A stretch of DNA of 60,505 bases, counting the filler, from Globobulimina sp. (taxonomy: Eukaryota): the NCBI GenBank assembly GCA_003354225.1. It is 11 parts of 11 records of this genome, joined end to end, with 100 filler letters (N's around TTAATTAATTAA, not from the genome) between each part and the next. Parts side by side here need not be neighbours in the genome. Positions count along the whole stretch, not along the records: positions 1 to 5,416 come from PIVH01000584.1; 10 more parts are not named here. One strand, written 5' to 3'. The position numbers and the translations under genes were made by a program. Below the pieces are notes generated by a model that did no database searches, was not told the DNA's origin, and saw only the letters and a program-made list of their open reading frames with translations. Of this stretch, positions 1 through 25,054 are shown one piece after another (the first letter of the stretch is position 1; each line of letters opens with the position of its first letter).

Positions 1-954
1 GGTGGTGTCATGGAACACGACTCGGTTATGGAAGGTGCAACAGAGCACGAACACGTCCTCGTATATATTGAACTGTTTGCTGTGGCCGCACAACTCACCA
101 CTTTGAAGAATAATTTGGCGGCGTTTAGAGTGAATAGAGCACGGTGCCTCATTGCAAACAAAGGCGTGAAGCAAGCGGAAGAGAGAGTGCCTTTCGATGA
201 AAAAGCGCCGGGATTTGATATGTTGATGTTGCTGACTTTGGAGCATTTGGCCCAAACCAAGCAAGTTAGAGAGCAAATGATTATGCAGACGAGAGCCATG
301 ATTTATAATTTGAGTGAGATTGAAAGCGACCAAAATGTGGCCCAAATGATGAAATTATTGAGAGAATATGAAAAAGAATTGTTGCATCGTCGGGATATGA
401 TTGAAATGCAATCGTGGATGGCTGAGAGGAGATTTTTTGAAATGAACAATACCTCCACGCGAATACAGAAAGCATTGCAACAATTAATAAATAAAAAAGA
501 GACACAAAGGAAGCAATTGGATGAGGAAAAGGAGCAATTATTGATATGGAAGGAAATGATGTTATTGAATTATGATGAGATGGATCAAGAAAAAATTGAC
601 AATTTGCTTGAAAAACTGAAGAATGAAAAGCCAGCAACGTTGAAAACGATGGGCCAAAAACGACGATGTCCGCACGACAAAAAAGAGTGTGTTGACCATC
701 TATGGCATGATAATTGTGGCCGAGGATGGCATTCCAATGGCATTGGAGGAGAAAGAAAGGGACAGCCAAACCCGTTAAAAACACGAAAACGGAACAGAAG
801 AGATGCAAATTTGAACGCATTTGAACAAATTAAGCCAGGATGGAATGCCCGGAATAGAAATCCGCAATATATGCAACCAGCATATTCGGCACCGCCTCCT
901 TTAAATCAATGGGCACAGCCACCACATCAACGCAATAATGGAAATCACCAATAA
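1..954 (+). CDS. Gag-like ORF, 3' portion (frame open from base 1)
   Basis: Coiled-coil-rich; Cys/His cluster CPHDKKECVDHLWHDNCGRGWH; basic, Pro/Gln tail; directly upstream of RT. Confidence 0.7.
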   Translation, partial: GGVMEHDSVMEGATEHEHVLVYIELFAVAAQLTTLKNNLAAFRVNRARCLIANKGVKQAEERVPFDEKAPGFDMLMLLTLEHLAQTKQVREQMIMQTRAMIYNLSEIESDQNVAQMMKLLREYEKELLHRRDMIEMQSWMAERRFFEMNNTSTRIQKALQQLINKKETQRKQLDEEKEQLLIWKEMMLLNYDEMDQEKIDNLLEKLKNEKPATLKTMGQKRRCPHDKKECVDHLWHDNCGRGWHSNGIGGERKGQPNPLKTRKRNRRDANLNAFEQIKPGWNARNRNPQYMQPAYSAPPPLNQWAQPPHQRNNGNHQ

Positions 955-1140
955 ATATCTGCAAATTAAGCATAAACACATATTAAGAACTGGCCAATAA
1001 AATAGTTCTTGGGTCGGAGTTATACATTAATTCTGGTTTTTATTTTTTGTTTTCTTTTTTCTATGTTTTCCAAACTTGCCTTAGATAACTTTGTAAAGCA
1101 TTTATTATTTAACATTCAATATAAATTTCACAATACACAG

Positions 1141-3078
1141 TCGCGAAAATATAAAACGCAACACGCGGCAGTCGAGAACAACCAGAAAGTCAAAGGTTTT
1201 TACCAAACCTGGAAAACCGCCAAGGTACCACAAAGTCCACCAAAATGGAGCCTACCGTCAGAGAAATTTATTAAAGCAATGGACACATTACCAGATGGAA
1301 AAACAGGTAATATTGGCCATCCCGATCAAAGATTAAAAGATACGATGAGGGATTTATTGGAGAATGGAGCCCAAATAACCTCCAACAAAGACATCAAACT
1401 CACTAGGAATGACACAGAAGAATACCCCCTGACCATTGACCAACACATTCAGAGATGCGAAACCATACAAAAACGCATCAAAGAAAAGGCGATTTGGGGG
1501 CCACATCACGAGAACAATATGCCCGAAGGATACCAGGATTACCATATAAACCCGGTATTCTTCAAAGATGAGACACCTTTGGGAGGGGCGAAGAAGGAAA
1601 GAATGATAATCGACTGCACCAATTCAACGCAGGATGGATTCGCACCAAATGATAATATATTCGAATGGGAAAAGAGTTGTCAATATATCACTATACTGAC
1701 AATTATACGGATGATCGTAGCATTGGGGATAACATGGATGATATCGGCAGACGCACAGAATGCGTTTAATAGGGTGCCGATCAACAATAAATTCATACAT
1801 TGGTTTGGAATGAAAGTAGGAGTATGGATATTTTTGTGGACAGCATTGGTATTCGGAGGAGGTTCCAGTTGCAGCATATATACAATATTCGCAGCAACAG
1901 TGGCATGGATTATTTCTAATACATATCAGCACATATTTTACATTGGAAAGAATTGTGTATTGAAGAATTATTTGGATGATTTTTTTGCAGGACATCGGAG
2001 TGAAAGCAAATGTTGGCAGCAGTATTATGCTATAAAATGGATGTTTAAATGGTTGGGGATACCCACCCAACAAAAGAAACTTATCACACCCACACAAATT
2101 ATGATATGGATCGGATTTATATTGAATTTGATCACCAGGACATTGGCCATACCAATGGCAAAAATAAAGAAAACTATCGTGAGAGGAACACGACTGTTGA
2201 GAGCACACCAAAGCAAACAGGAAGTGGCAGCAAAGCAAATATCGGGATATATTGGCATCGCACGGCATATATCATATGTACATTATTACATAATTCCAGC
2301 CTTAAGGCGCTTAGAAGAGGCCGTAGCTGGTAAAGAGCCATCGGATAAAATAAAAATCACAGTGGAGATGGCCAGAGACATTGAATTGGTCATTGAACCA
2401 TTGATGGATCCAAATAATAACTCCATCAAATTTGACTGGCTGCTTTATGATAAATCAAAGGCAGATATTACGATTGAAACAGACGCCGCGGGAAAGCTTG
2501 GAATTGGCGGACTGGAAATGATGAAAAATGGCATTTTCTATGGAGTTATGTATAGAGAGTTATTTGAATGGAACAAATTGAACCCGCCGGACATTGTTTA
2601 TTTGGAACTACTGGCGATATATGTAATGGTTATGATAAACCCTGCAAAATATACAGGGAAAGCAATATTATTCTTATGTGATAACAAGGCAGTTTGCGCC
2701 ATTATGGCCAAAAAATGCGCTTGTTTCTATCGGAAAGATTTGCAGGAACTGCTTAGAAGAATTTGCAGAGCCTGCAACAAATATAAATTCTACGCTTGGA
2801 TTAATTGGATATCCACGGATATGAACCCAAGAGCCGATGGGCTATCACGCGGAAAACACAATGCATTGGAAAGTTGCAACAAAGATTGGAACTTAAAGAG
2901 TGAAAATTCATCAGCAATATTTCATGGAAATGAGGGAATGAGGATCTATAAAGAAGCCAGGAAACGAATGGCAAACTTGAAAGGAAAGCAAAAGAAATGT
3001 AAATGCAAAAGGGAGCAAACTTGTAAGCAACAGAAAGTTTATCCAAAATGGCAATCTTGCAACCAATATAAACCATAA
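1141..3078 (+). CDS. Reverse transcriptase + RNase H (pol); true start uncertain
   Basis: RT motifs ISADAQNAF, LVFGGGSS, YLDDF, WIGF; RNase H motifs TDAAG, LELLAI, CDNKAV, NPRADGLSR. 1009-1140 looks intronic (T-rich, ends ACACAG). Confidence 0.93.
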   Translation, partial: SRKYKTQHAAVENNQKVKGFYQTWKTAKVPQSPPKWSLPSEKFIKAMDTLPDGKTGNIGHPDQRLKDTMRDLLENGAQITSNKDIKLTRNDTEEYPLTIDQHIQRCETIQKRIKEKAIWGPHHENNMPEGYQDYHINPVFFKDETPLGGAKKERMIIDCTNSTQDGFAPNDNIFEWEKSCQYITILTIIRMIVALGITWMISADAQNAFNRVPINNKFIHWFGMKVGVWIFLWTALVFGGGSSCSIYTIFAATVAWIISNTYQHIFYIGKNCVLKNYLDDFFAGHRSESKCWQQYYAIKWMFKWLGIPTQQKKLITPTQIMIWIGFILNLITRTLAIPMAKIKKTIVRGTRLLRAHQSKQEVAAKQISGYIGIARHISYVHYYIIPALRRLEEAVAGKEPSDKIKITVEMARDIELVIEPLMDPNNNSIKFDWLLYDKSKADITIETDAAGKLGIGGLEMMKNGIFYGVMYRELFEWNKLNPPDIVYLELLAIYVMVMINPAKYTGKAILFLCDNKAVCAIMAKKCACFYRKDLQELLRRICRACNKYKFYAWINWISTDMNPRADGLSRGKHNALESCNKDWNLKSENSSAIFHGNEGMRIYKEARKRMANLKGKQKKCKCKREQTCKQQKVYPKWQSCNQYKP

Positions 3079-3213
3079 ATTAATTCTGCAAATTTACAAT
3101 CATATTTAAAATTTTTCTTATTATTTACAAATACAAACAAACTCGTTTCCGAAAGCAAACTACTCGCAAACGCCAGACTTACTTTTTCTTTTTTTCACAT
3201 TAAAAACAAAAAC

Positions 3214-4299
3214 TTGCTTCAAAAGGTACGAAAAGATAAGCGGTTTCGGCCAAAGAAGTTAACCGACCAACAGTTTAGAATGAGAAGAGCCGTAAATTGG
3301 CAATTTAGGCACGCAACAAAAACAAACGAACAATATGGATCAGTCGAAAAGTATTGGATTATATTCAATAAATTACACCAAAGACAAATAGATGATTTCA
3401 GTGAGGATAATATCATAGATTATATGATATGGAATAAAGAATGTAAGGCATCATTTGGATGGACAGCAGTGCATTCACATCAATTCGGAATACGTGACAT
3501 CGCACTGAAATATAATAAAAAGATCAAAGTCGATAAAACAGAAATGCCCAATTTATACAACTATAAAATCGCAGAAAAGAGGCAAAAGCCAGGAAAAGGA
3601 GGATCGCAGCCAATAAATGAACATATGATACATTTATGGACACAAATTATAAGAAAGGATCGGACCATCGATAAAATAACAAAACTATCATGGATTGCTA
3701 TTATAAATATGGCATTCACGGAGATTAAGAGAATCAGTGAATACACAATCGACATAAAAATAAAAGACAATCTCACATATAACAGCCTACAATTTGAGTA
3801 TGACATAGATGCAAATAATTGGAAACAATCAACATATATAATTTGGGAACGAGAGAAAGGAAAAACACATCAATTTAACTTTGCAAATAACACCTTAAAG
3901 TCGGCAATTATCTGCCAATGTAACACCAAAGAAAAGGTCTGCACCAAATGTGCATTGATTGAATTGACTGAATACAGATTGAAGCAAAGCAAAATAACAA
4001 ATCAACAATTTGATAGAAATCAATATATCTTCACCGACAATGACAAGCCAATAAACAAATATATGGTTGGAAAAATGATAAAAGAGTTATGTAGAAAGAC
4101 AGGATTTGATGAAACTAAGTATACATCACATGGATTTAGGAAAGGTGGTACACAAAAGGCCATAGCCGATGGTGTACCACTCCCACAAATACAAAAGCAA
4201 GCAGACTGGAATGGGCCAGCAATGATATTTCGTTATAACAATAATATAACAATAAGCAAACAAATAAATTTAATGAAAAGCGTCTATAAAACGCATTGA
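3214..4299 (+). CDS. Tyrosine recombinase (lambda integrase family)
   Basis: Full catalytic set: R in KRISEY, K in KGKT, HGFR, W in ADW, Y in FRY; first ATG at 3280. Confidence 0.92.
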   Translation: MLQKVRKDKRFRPKKLTDQQFRMRRAVNWQFRHATKTNEQYGSVEKYWIIFNKLHQRQIDDFSEDNIIDYMIWNKECKASFGWTAVHSHQFGIRDIALKYNKKIKVDKTEMPNLYNYKIAEKRQKPGKGGSQPINEHMIHLWTQIIRKDRTIDKITKLSWIAIINMAFTEIKRISEYTIDIKIKDNLTYNSLQFEYDIDANNWKQSTYIIWEREKGKTHQFNFANNTLKSAIICQCNTKEKVCTKCALIELTEYRLKQSKITNQQFDRNQYIFTDNDKPINKYMVGKMIKELCRKTGFDETKYTSHGFRKGGTQKAIADGVPLPQIQKQADWNGPAMIFRYNNNITISKQINLMKSVYKTH

Positions 4300-4357
4300 A
4301 AATAATTTAATTTAACTTAATTTAAAACAACAACAAACCGACAGGAAAACCAAACGA

Positions 4358-4577
4358 ATGGTAATATAAGGAATGAGGAAGGAAAGGACATAAGACAAAC
4401 GGTAACGAGTGGTATATTTAGTGTTTCTGGAACCTCCTATAAGTCCGTAAAAGTTCCAGACTACACCGAGTACCCTACCTAGTAATTACCATACGTCCTA
4501 ACCCCTAACGGGGCCCCTCAAGATATATATAGCTCGCCGAATATAATACGGAGTTATATGCGTAGCAAATATAACTC
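4358..4577. repeat. Cluster of inverted repeats in the element's noncoding junction
   Basis: ATGGTAAT 4358-4365 / ATTACCAT 4485-4492; TCTGGAAC 4426-4433 / GTTCCAGA 4453-4460; CCCC-TAAC-GGGG 4502-4513; GAGTTATAT 4551-4559 / ATATAACTC 4569-4577. Confidence 0.75.
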
Positions 4578-4846
4578 TAGTTATATAGAAGAACTATACA
4601 ATACAAGAATAACATTATGAACGAAGAGATCTTGACAATTCATAATGTGACGTAATAAATCTCCGAATTGAAATATATAATTCTCGTTTCTTCCTATAAT
4701 TTTTTTTAGGAATGAAGAAACAGCTAAGTCTGAAAAGAAGTTTTCAAAAACTAACTTCCCGCAGAGACCCCCTGAACAAAACAAAACAGCATCACCCCAG
4801 AAAAAGAGCAAAGACACAAAGCACATTTAGCAATTTGCAAACAACA

Positions 4847-5158
4847 ATGAGCGAAGTGGAGCAACCAACGGAACCAAAAACATGGGATCAATCGAAGGCG
4901 ACCGTAGCCGAGCAATTGAATATGCCATGGGACCAAATCAAGGCCATCAATGACAGTGACCAATTAATGCAGCATTACCATGCATTGGATAGTTATCACC
5001 AATTGGTGTTATTAAGAGAATTAAAAATCGATCAAGTCCGATTAATTAATCAAGAATTAGAGAATGCATGCAAACGGCAGCAGGAACAGGTCGACCAAGT
5101 ACGAGCAGCAACAGGCTGTCACCCAACAGGATCTGCAGAATTTATTAGCCGGCAATGA
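4847..5158 (+). CDS. Small leading ORF of the retroelement, function unknown
   Basis: ATG at 4847 (MSEVEQPTEPKTWDQ...), protein-like helical composition; the frame is open back to 4712. Confidence 0.5.
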   Translation: MSEVEQPTEPKTWDQSKATVAEQLNMPWDQIKAINDSDQLMQHYHALDSYHQLVLLRELKIDQVRLINQELENACKRQQEQVDQVRAATGCHPTGSAEFISRQ

Positions 5159-5416
5159 CAATGAAAATGGATTAAAAGTTTAGTTTTTAAATTTTTTATT
5201 GAAAAAGAATGTTTTTTTGAGTGACAATTGACGTCACACGGAAAAAGGAAGAATAATTTGTATGCAATCATCTGTTTTTTTTTCGGAGCATACAAATAAA
5301 CCAACAAACAGTTGGTGGCCGATGCGATGGATAAAGTCGGTGGAATGATTGAGACATTCTCGGGTGCCATGAACGCACAAGGCACGAATATGGAAAAGAT
5401 CACAAAAACAGTATCA
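5064..5416 (+). CDS. Probable spliced 5' part of gag (exon 5064-5177, intron 5178-5311, exon 5312-5416)
   Basis: MHANGSRN...NENGLK, phase-0 intron GTTTAG...AAACAG, then LVADAMDKVGG...KITKTVS open to the contig end and in phase with base 1. Confidence 0.55.
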
Positions 5417-5516
5417 NNNNNNNNNNNNNNNNNNNNNNNNNNNNNNNNNNNNNNNNNNNNTTAATTAATTAANNNNNNNNNNNNNNNNNNNNNNNNNNNN
5501 NNNNNNNNNNNNNNNN
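5417..5516. other. Artificial contig linker (also at 10933, 16445, 21956, 27466, 32976, 38485, 43994, 49501, 55006)
   Basis: 44 N + TTAATTAATTAA (stops in all six frames) + 44 N, identical each time. Confidence 0.99.
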
Positions 5517-22239: not shown

Positions 22240-22658
22240 GGTCCTAGGTCCCAATTTATATTGCGCAATATAAGAACAACCCCTAATATAAGATAATGCA
22301 CTCTGTGTGTGGGGTATCTCGTATGACACACTAGACTGACTACTCTATACTCGCTCATATATGACTACACCCCGATATACTATAGTAGCCTTCAGCACAC
22401 AACTCGTTCAGTTTCCTTCTCTGGAGGCCTATACTTTATATGCTTTCGGAGGTTGTATTGAGACCTATCCGTATATACGTAACCCATAGGAGCCTACAAA
22501 AAGCCTTTAGACTCACCTTGCGGGTTCGAATCTTCGGCTTATGGTATTATTGATGGATGGATTTAGCTGGCGTTTTGATGCATTGCATGATGACTACTAA
22601 TATTTAACAGATTAGGTTACTTACTTCACTAGACATAAATCTCAGTAAGTTGGGCAGC

Positions 22659-25054
22659 ATGGCTTCACAACAAAGCGCTGGAGATGAGGATAAAAAAGAT
22701 AATGCACCAGAACCAGCAGACGAAAAAGAAGAAAAACACGCAGGTGTCGGAGATGGTGGTGGTATAGTAACCCGCCGTGAGATACGTTCATTGTCCCCCG
22801 ACGAACAGAACCGATTTTTTGATGCAATTGATACAATGATGAAGGCCAAATCAGGTCCAGGCACCTCAGAGTTTTATCGCTGCGCTTCGTACCATGGACA
22901 ACCACCACCCATATATTGCGAACATGGCAGAGAAACATTTCCCGGATGGCATAGAATTTATATGTATGACTTTGAACAAGCGATACAAACCGCTGATAAA
23001 GAAAATGGAAACGATGGCAAAATTGCATTACCATACTGGTATACACATATATTTCGGCAGTTTTTCTGCAAATTGTTGCTCAAACTTATACACAGGGATT
23101 ACAACACCAATCCGCAAGATGGCATTCCCAGCATAATACGCCAGAGATTCGCCAATTGGCCCGATGATTTTTGGCCAGATTCCATGAAAAATCTCGGGCG
23201 AACTCAAAAATTACAGCGTGCGCCGGATGGCCAAGTGACTGCACAGTTGCGTGCCTACGATGTGAGCCGTGAGTGTAATGACTGTTTATTAGCGACGCAG
23301 CATTGGGCGCATGCCTCGACTCGTTTCGGTGGCTCGTATCCATCGATCGAGACGCCGCATAACAGTGTGCATGTAATAGCGGGCGGTGCCGGCGGACAAA
23401 TGAGCTCTGTGGCGTGGGCCGCGTACGATATCGTATTCTTCCTCCATCACTGTAATGTGGACCGTATTTATGAGCGGTATTTGGGATTAGAGCCAGATTC
23501 GTTTGTGGAATTTCGCAATTTCCAGGACACGCAACGGGTGGATATGTTTGATCGAACGTTTGAGCCCTTTCGTAAAGCGAATGGGGACAAATATTCACCG
23601 CATGACACGTTTAAGACTGAGCCGCTTGGATACAAATATGATAAGTTACCGTCTGTACCACAGCAACAATTGCGAGAGGCGCCGACCTTTTGCTTGTGGC
23701 CTCAGGTCAAAGTCTCTGAGTTTGAGTCGAAATGTTATCAAATTCATGTATGGATTGTGGATACAGAGAAGGAAGATGAATTTAAGGTATTTTTTTACAA
23801 TGAAATAAATATAAAAGGATAGGTTGCATATTTTTTGTTGCTGTCCAGGCACCGCAAAGACTGGAAGACATTGACTATGATTCACCAAATTATGCGGGTG
23901 GCGCAGGAATATTTGGGCGTGGTATGGAATGTGAAAATTGTGTGAACCGACCACCGCAAGATATTGCCGTTGATATTACGCAGGCTTTGCGTGATTTGGG
24001 TGTTAATCGGTACGGCGCCGCTGCCATTTGTAAGGTGCTGGAAACCACTGAGAATAGTACGGTTTTGCAAGCGGTGGGTGATACGCCTTTGGGCGACCCC
24101 ATTATAACTGGCCCATTGTTCGTGAATTGTGGTGGTGCTGAGTTGTTGGATGAGGATGACAAGAAAACAAACAATACGTCGGAAGTGGAAGCGTTGCAGC
24201 GATATCTACAAAAGTTTGGTTATTATGGGCCTGAACAAAAAATCGATGGCGATTATGGTCCTTTTACGTGTCAAGCGGTGAAAGATTATCAGACAGCCAC
24301 TGGTACTCTGAAAGTGGACGGCATTGCTGGGCCCAAAACGAGACAGTCCATAATTAATAGCAAACGATGTGATAACATTGGTATGTCTCTCCCCTTTCAT
24401 GTCAGTTAAAACTACAGGTTTCAGCTCGGAATTTGTATTAAGTGCATACTGCGGATAACTGTCAAGTGTTTCCGTGAATAATACATAGACCCGTTTGCGA
24501 AGAATGATGTCGTGGATAAATCCGTAGATTTTGCCAGTTGCAAATATGCGACTGAAAAGGAGATAAAATATTTTATCGCACCGCAACCAGGTTATTTGCA
24601 GCGAGATGGCGTGGAAGCAGTGATAGCAAAATCATGCGCTGAATATGAGAATAATTCTTCGTTGACATTTAAAAGCGTGGAAGAAGAGAAAGAATGTGAT
24701 ATAAAGTTTTCGTGGGTCATGTTTAACAAAGAAGAGGATCCATTACGCTATGATGGCTCCGGTGGCGTGTTAGGACGTGGTGGCAATGGCTTTGTTGAGT
24801 TTGATTTGGCGGAGAGATGGGCCCTTGGTTTGGGTGGCGATGAGGAGGCATTGTCGGATTTATTTGACCGGGAAACATGGCGTAGAGGGCAGCCGACCAT
24901 ATCTTTGTATTATACTGCTTTGCATGAATTGGGTCATGCTCTCGGATTGGTTCATAGTGCGGAGGCCGGCGATGTGATGAGTCCATGGTATGATCCCTCA
25001 CAAACGGCGTTATCTAAAAATGATGTTGAAAGTATTCAAAACATTGTTGGTTGA
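22659..25054 (+). CDS. Tyrosinase + PG-binding-like prodomain + matrixin (M10) metalloprotease fusion, 4 exons
   Basis: CuA YHG...CEHGRETFPGWHR; LPYWDY after splicing; CuB ETPHNSVH...FFLHHCNVDR; CENC; LQKFGYY...VDGIAGPKT; KRCD; HELGHALGLVH; VMSPWY; introns 23039-23095, 23787-23848, 24381-24488. Confidence 0.88.

Follow-up and report, generated by a model that had tools for sequence, protein, structure and literature searches.

Does the first contig of this stretch hold a retrotransposon whose last base leads directly into its first? The window analyzed is 60,505 bases of DNA from Globobulimina sp. (assembly GCA_003354225.1) and consists of 11 unrelated contigs of 5,400–5,416 nt each, sorted by falling length and separated by N44-TTAATTAATTAA-N44 spacers (the first at 5417–5516, nine more after it). 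The finding spans all of contig 1 (1–5416, PIVH01000584.1); the ~55 kb beyond 5416 are unrelated contigs and are never its flank. Contig 1 is a tyrosine recombinase (YR) retrotransposon of order DIRS in the broad sense, and an initial annotation had described it as an intact element recovered in a closed-circle-like permutation. Our preferred reading, held with a little less than even confidence, is that contig 1 represents a coding-complete unit of a Ngaro-like YR retrotransposon from a microbial eukaryote, permuted through assembly across its own end-to-end junction.

A tyrosine recombinase retrotransposon on contig 1

Every feature of contig 1 lies on the + strand under the standard code, with gag, pol and YR in phase 0 and a further open reading frame (ORFX) and an open terminal tail in phase 1. 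The pol open reading frame (ORF; 1063–3078, 671 aa from ATG 1063, frame open from 1006, stop TAA 3076–3078) matched RVT_1 in Pfam at E = 1.1e-8 (35.5 bits vs a cut-off of 29.6). The adjacent YR ORF (3280–4299, first ATG 3280, stop TGA 4297–4299, coding-like from 3214) matched Phage_integrase at E = 2.1e-8 (34.6 bits vs a cut-off of 27.1), and neither rve nor any other DDE integrase family was matched by Pfam on the contig 1 ORFs. Pol carries the reverse transcriptase (RT) motifs ADAQNAF (1747–1767) and YLDDF (1969–1983), followed by the RNase H D-E-D-D series (2476–2847; ETDAAG from 2476, YLELLA from 2599, CDNKAV from 2677 and RADGLS from 2830) and by a C-terminal CxC..C motif (2998–3024). In a nine-sequence pol alignment the RT motifs are conserved as ADAxNAF and YLDDF, while ETDA, E533 and D558-N559 of RNase H are invariant and ADGLSR occurs in all but one truncated sequence. 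Membership of order DIRS follows from these observations, because RVT_1 and Phage_integrase stand above cut-off on adjacent same-strand ORFs, the RNase H columns are conserved and rve is lacking.

The catalytic residues of the recombinase were assigned by eye from the R..HxxR..H/W..Y family pattern and follow its expected order. They comprise the box I Arg in KRISE (3727–3741), HGFR (4129–4140), the Trp in DWNG (4204–4215) and the Tyr in IFRY (4225–4236). No YR homologue was found among 592 candidates or among Protein Data Bank sequences at E ≤ 1, and the AlphaFold2 model of this protein (mean predicted local distance difference test score, pLDDT, of 30.6) was unusable for a fold search.

Upstream of pol, a gag-like ORF of 317 codons (1–954) is open from base 1, with its first ATG at 10 and its stop TAA at 952–954. 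The protein is helical, with a long predicted helix over residues 111–187, and contains a Cys/His motif, C-x6-C-x8-C-x4-H, at 667–732. It matched no Pfam family and had no homologue among 2448 candidates in a word-index search; its AlphaFold2 single-sequence model (pLDDT 54) is of low confidence and too poor for a fold search. A full phmmer search against 1.84 billion representatives returned one weak match (P0016, E = 4.6e-4), a 136-aa C-terminal fragment that aligns to gag residues 185–310 and keeps the motif as C-x6/8-C-x8-C-x4-H. Elements of order DIRS begin with a gag-like ORF that in some cases has a zinc finger; the label "gag" for the first ORF here is a weak one, drawn from its position and this conserved motif. 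With that label understood, the order given by the initial annotation stands: the 3' part of gag, pol and YR follow one another with complete motifs and no internal stops, their frames being open over 1–954, 1006/1063–3078 and 3079/3214/3280–4299, respectively.

The two boundaries between these genes differ in character. Gag and pol are divided by four stops, and the AT-rich spacer between them (955–1062, GC 0.27, in-frame stops at 967, 973 and 1003) is not coding-like; pol starts at an ATG of its own, 1063. A single stop, TAA 3076–3078, parts pol from YR, and after it an in-frame linker (3079–3279) runs open for 67 codons without an ATG. To gauge coding character we used a codon log-odds score trained on gag, pol and YR, whose 30-codon windows average 0.20 (sd 0.09) in frame and reach at most 0.16 off frame. 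The last 22 codons of the linker (3214–3279) are coding-like at +0.25, as compared to +0.10 over 3079–3213. A single TAA followed by an open, ATG-less and partly coding-like linker suggests stop-codon read-through, by which YR might be expressed as a pol-YR fusion. A variant genetic code that would merge the ORFs appears unlikely: the spacers contain TAA, TAG and TGA, and standard-code ORFs on the other contigs reach 974 codons.

The relatives of pol are all unnamed. Fifteen were found among 7,091 candidates, eight of them at E ≤ 1e-134 with 37–50% identity. In a tree with these sequences, the element's pol falls with the eight unnamed environmental proteins in a clade of nine (support 100/100) on a long stem, where it stands alone as sister of P0001–P0004 (support 94/92). 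Pol-profile patterns searched against genome contigs of bacteria and archaea matched 67 stretches, none of which was confirmed, and comparison with a protein atlas gave unnamed or weakly named eukaryotic clusters only, leads at most.

Within order DIRS the element is Ngaro-like by structure, a placement drawn from its architecture. DIRS1-like and PAT-like elements encode a methyltransferase after RNase H, and its absence sets Ngaro and Viper apart (PMC4157794; this and the other papers cited here are drawn on as excerpts). On contig 1 no ORF matched a methyltransferase family in Pfam. Pol ends ~75 residues past the last RNase H Asp, therefore leaving no space for such a domain, and 287–371 residues lie beyond YLDD in all 16 of 16 sequences. 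DIRS1-like elements bear inverted terminal repeats (ITRs) together with an internal complementary region (ICR), whereas PAT, Ngaro and VIPER bear split direct repeats of the form A1...B1A2B2 (PMC4157794, PMC6681497, PMC7192593). The longest inverted repeat here is 27 nt at 78% identity, between pol and the non-coding region, and no ITR or ICR was found on the contig, from which the termini may be absent. The lack of a methyltransferase and of ITR/ICR, the order gag-RT/RNase H-YR and the 5.4-kb size together make the element Ngaro-like. DIRS1-like and PAT-like elements do share gag, RT/RNase H and YR with it, and a circular intermediate has been proposed for them.

The closest likeness is to the Ngaro elements of Cafeteria burkhardae, animals and fungi. 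Shared features are the order of a gag-like gene, RT/RNase H and YR on one strand, the lack of both methyltransferase and DDE integrase, a YR with HxxR and a catalytic Tyr, and a size of ~5–6 kb; the protist Ngaro of the flagellate C. burkhardae is laid out as A1-[ORFs]-B1A2B2 over about 6 kb (PMC8547959). The differences are that pol here sits in the long-stemmed clade described above, that no RNase H Pfam match was obtained on this element whereas the Cafeteria RNase H is reported as PF17919 (PMC8547959), and that split direct repeats were not observed in a contig that holds at most one unit. Such repeats would not be visible in one unit, whether collapsed or circular. VIPER/TATE elements are likewise YR retrotransposons that lack a methyltransferase and have split direct repeats (PMC6681497), which were not seen here; they differ in being known from kinetoplastids and in their SIRE-derived ends, and are likened to the element by description only.

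Sequence beyond the recombinase gene

Four segments follow the YR stop codon. A hairpin-rich non-coding region of 547 nt (4300–4846) is not coding-like in any frame. It is followed by ORFX (4847–5158, 103 codons beginning MSEVEQ, stop TGA 5156–5158), by a second AT-rich spacer (5159–5299, GC 0.26, four in-frame stops including that of ORFX) and by the open tail (5300–5416), whose 39 codons include an ATG at 5327 and end flush with the contig. The tail is coding-like by direct scoring: it reaches +0.26 per codon and ORFX +0.24 over 4850–5098, both beyond every off-frame 30-codon window. The score is ~0 at 4712–4848 and −0.03 over the 19 codons at 5099–5155, and neither 4301–4711 nor the spacers are coding-like. 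GC is 0.42–0.45 in ORFX and the tail vs 0.41 in gag. Since both resemble the element's genes in codon usage and GC, element coding sequence is favored over host sequence for the DNA past the YR gene, with a score that was trained on element genes only. The absence of recognizable host sequence, asserted by the initial annotation, agrees with Pfam, which gave no family above cut-off for the ORFs of 4300–5416 on either strand.

How ORFX and the tail relate to gag is less clear-cut. The initial annotation had treated the tail as the last exon (5312–5416). That segment is exactly 35 codons and, with 5416 mod 3 = 1, in frame with base 1; its left boundary was deduced from an AG at 5310–5311, a candidate acceptor for a putative gag intron, whereas the frame is open for 39 codons from 5300. 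The exon model as a whole was not borne out by the available donors. Those in phase, CAG|GTCGAC (5090) and CAA|GTACGA (5099), are unlike the GTATGT or GTATGA donors of three host introns of ~40–80 nt seen by eye. Hexamer counts, tried as a route to a host donor consensus, were uninformative and did not show GTATGT to be enriched (26 observed vs 36.9 expected). The drop in codon score over 5099–5155 mildly supports an intron. ORFX could be the exon with which gag begins or, if gag starts at ATG 5327, a fourth ORF in its own right downstream of YR. Some Ngaro elements do carry a fourth ORF after YR, in the position that ORFX occupies (PMC9210276). ORFX differs in showing no SGNH-hydrolase similarity, and it matched no Pfam family above cut-off.

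We also considered whether the tail is a diverged copy of the contig's head and rejected this, as the observed score was reached by 197 of 500 DNA shuffles and by 433 of 1000 protein shuffles. The tail would therefore be extra N-terminal sequence and not a second copy of that part.

The non-coding region is marked by perfect hairpins at 4551–4559/4569–4577 and 4612–4621/4639–4648. A third copy of AGTTATAT lies at 4579–4586, so that the first hairpin includes three alternating copies of AGTTATAT. These two stems in 4300–4846 compare with 0.07 expected, a number reached in none of 300 shuffles. Another hairpin, at 5256–5265/5288–5297 in the second spacer, is not significant alone (28 of 300 shuffles reach it); over all non-coding parts, three perfect hairpins with arms of 9–10 nt were found vs 0.14 expected (0 of 300 dinucleotide shuffles). 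The hairpins are candidate recombinase-binding, priming or terminator sites, and 4300–4846 as a whole is a candidate for the end-to-end (B-A) junction, a promoter, a terminator or a recombination site, functions assigned from its structure. Contig 1 contains 17 direct-repeat families, all two-copy matches of 14–26 nt, none of which lies in the 3' region.

Some short motifs were observed alongside. TCTGCAAAT occurs four times in the window vs 1.44 expected, with three copies in contig 1 at 958–966 (+), 3085–3093 (+) and 2761–2769 (−). Both + strand copies lie 4–7 nt past the gag and pol stop codons, and a one-base variant, TCTGCAGAAT, is found at 5132–5141, shortly before the ORFX stop. TCTGCAAAT may signal termination, re-initiation or processing. 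The perfect palindrome TGACGTCA at 5229–5236, ~90 nt upstream of ATG 5327, resembles a CRE/ATF site and, were gag to start at 5327, could belong to its promoter.

A possible join of the contig ends

The phase of the tail continues into base 1, since 5416 mod 3 = 1. The initial annotation had joined the two ends on this ground and had warned that a phase match has a 1-in-3 chance of being coincidental, a caveat that is correct. Other observations point the same way as the phase. The contig opens inside an ORF at base 1 and closes with 39 codons that are open, coding-like and flush with its end. Were ATG 10 the true start of gag, chance would have had to place the first base of the contig at most 9 nt from it. 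The contig also contains no B1/B2 or A1/A2 pair, as expected for exactly one unit.

Several points weigh against the join, the 1-in-3 coincidence among them. By composition, p is ~0.03–0.10 for an open tail of 35–41 codons; across the other ten contigs, however, 23% of all 41-codon windows are free of stops. Terminal overlap is absent and no repeat links the contig ends. Closed cycles retain a k-mer overlap in the output of many graph assemblers, and ends that abut exactly without any overlap are otherwise coincidental. No homologue spans 5416→1, the word-index search with gag having given no match and phmmer the single C-terminal fragment. Split direct repeats were not seen and Ngaro-type termini are assumed. 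A split-repeat collapse should, in addition, add an A-to-B2 branch to the assembly graph and break the contig at the repeat borders; a break within gag would fit only if the A repeat stopped precisely at 5416. Finally, the other ten contigs hold no second copy of the element (the top tblastn match has E = 0.07, the top blastn match 56 nt at 80%) and lend no support to a multi-copy status. We infer the abutment, the repeat type and the mechanism from this mixed evidence: the chances that 5416 abuts base 1 appear roughly even to slightly better, and a permuted single unit is plausible at roughly even odds.

The same observations bear on a linear genomic fragment with no true join, which we consider unlikely. 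Such a fragment would start in gag and end in a host exon, in another or nested element or in the gag of the next copy, with the frame match a coincidence. It accords with the lack of terminal overlap and of repeats linking the ends, with the chance expectations for phase and for open windows, and with the lack of a gag homologue bridging the ends. DIRS-1 is also reported to insert preferentially into other copies of itself (PMC7192593), and nested or neighboring copies are common in the order. Set against it, ORFX and the tail resemble the element's genes on a score trained on those genes only, and no Pfam family occurs in either. The 5' part of gag, moreover, must exist, and the sole remaining coding-like DNA on the contig is in a compatible phase.

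If the join is real, the initial annotation named the right options: a circle, a tandem array and a split-repeat collapse, which give identical sequence. In our preferred reading, the contig would start inside gag, continue by way of pol and YR to the non-coding region, and end with the 5' part of the same gag. The likeliest cause of this order would be an assembler that walked through the element's end-to-end junction. Genomic copies with split direct repeats would all have that junction natively as B1-A2, and it would also occur in tandem copies, so the layout would need no free circle. A collapse requires only that the assembler read A2 as A1 and is therefore the most economical reading. 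By analogy with published models for order DIRS, the element would be transcribed and its RNA reverse-transcribed; terminal redundancy would close the cDNA into a circle, which YR would then insert into the genome by site-specific recombination.

A head-to-tail tandem array of at least two genomic copies, arising for example when YR integrates a circle into a copy already resident, and collapsed by short-read assembly, would produce the same layout through a graph cycle with lower-coverage flank edges. We give this reading little credence. Neither a second copy nor a variant was seen in the other ten contigs, and the excerpts drawn on report no tandem arrays, the word "tandem" being absent from PMC9210276 and PMC3783388.

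An extrachromosomal closed circle of double-stranded DNA (dsDNA) from an active element, perhaps inflated in number by rolling-circle amplification and opened at an arbitrary place when assembled as an isolated cycle, is an improbable source of the contig. Both ends fall at one arbitrary point in a unique coding region and not at a repeat border, which is how an isolated cycle (a circle or a long array) behaves; all ORFs are intact, and the circle is the intermediate proposed by published models (PMC7192593). The ends do not overlap, though, where an isolated cycle usually leaves a k-mer overlap, and amplification of the sample by phi29 was an assumption of the initial annotation only. [quoted passage not shown] A free circle ranks as the least likely of the readings offered.

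A more far-reaching version, to which we likewise assign a small probability, is that the closed-circle dsDNA of an active YR retroelement was caught directly from the cell, or that the contig is an episome akin to a recombinase-bearing pararetrovirus. Caulimoviridae and Hepadnaviridae, reverse-transcribing viruses with circular dsDNA genomes, resemble the element in their small unit, one-strand genes and RT/RNase H, and in circularity if the element is circular; they are not known to carry a tyrosine recombinase. Contig 1 showed no homology to capsid or envelope proteins. In either the circle or the episome case, the B-A junction with the hairpins at 4551–4648 would be the recombination site. 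Among the papers listed in our literature searches, none reports the recovery of a circle of such an element.

The host and the meaning of the element

The other ten contigs are eukaryotic, with WASH, G-alpha, RabGAP-TBC, Brix, P-type ATPase and matrixin among their Pfam matches (25 of 54 ORFs tested, E ≤ 1e-5). They yielded no taxon marker; the ubiquitin matches on contig 3 are ubiquitin-like domains and not polyubiquitin. Rfam gave no match in the entire window. The rhizarian lineage that the initial annotation had entertained for the element is thus unsupported by the sequences of the window. Among the papers listed in our literature searches, none links DIRS or Ngaro to rhizarian genomes, and one rhizarian genome paper makes no mention of DIRS, Ngaro or "tyrosine recombinase".

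Some features of these contigs were recorded in passing. On contig 3 (13192–13939, −), two exons that encode ubiquitin-like domains each terminate in AAATT|GTATG, with a short AT-rich intron after each; another example of a host intron is found at ~24381–24417. Contig 5 (22608–25051, +) carries a tyrosinase-domain ORF and then PG_binding_1 and Matrixin ORFs, which form a matrix-metalloprotease-like gene with a short intron interrupting it. On contig 10 (52755–54791, +), a 679-codon ORF matches no Pfam family at E ≤ 0.05 and lies in a stretch with an A-over-T skew of 0.32, as strong as that of the retrotransposon coding strand.

YR retrotransposons are uncommon and little understood; to our knowledge, the circular integration intermediate of these elements has never been isolated. 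The circle has been postulated since the DIRS-1 model, and its junction was not recovered in the DIRS-1 study (excerpts of PMC7192593). Taken together, the sequence evidence points to a real, intact and divergent element of a known kind, for which a circular permutation is plausible but unproven and a free DNA circle unproven. If reads were to prove a circle, the exact junction would be in hand, and the attachment site and the specificity of the YR would become directly testable. A permuted contig is also the expected product when the terminal redundancy of such an element is itself assembled. Contig 1 can serve as a clean reference for one divergent Ngaro-like element. With its pol in a well-supported clade alongside eight unnamed environmental proteins, the YR retrotransposons gain a lineage through this intact copy from a protist that has been under-sampled.

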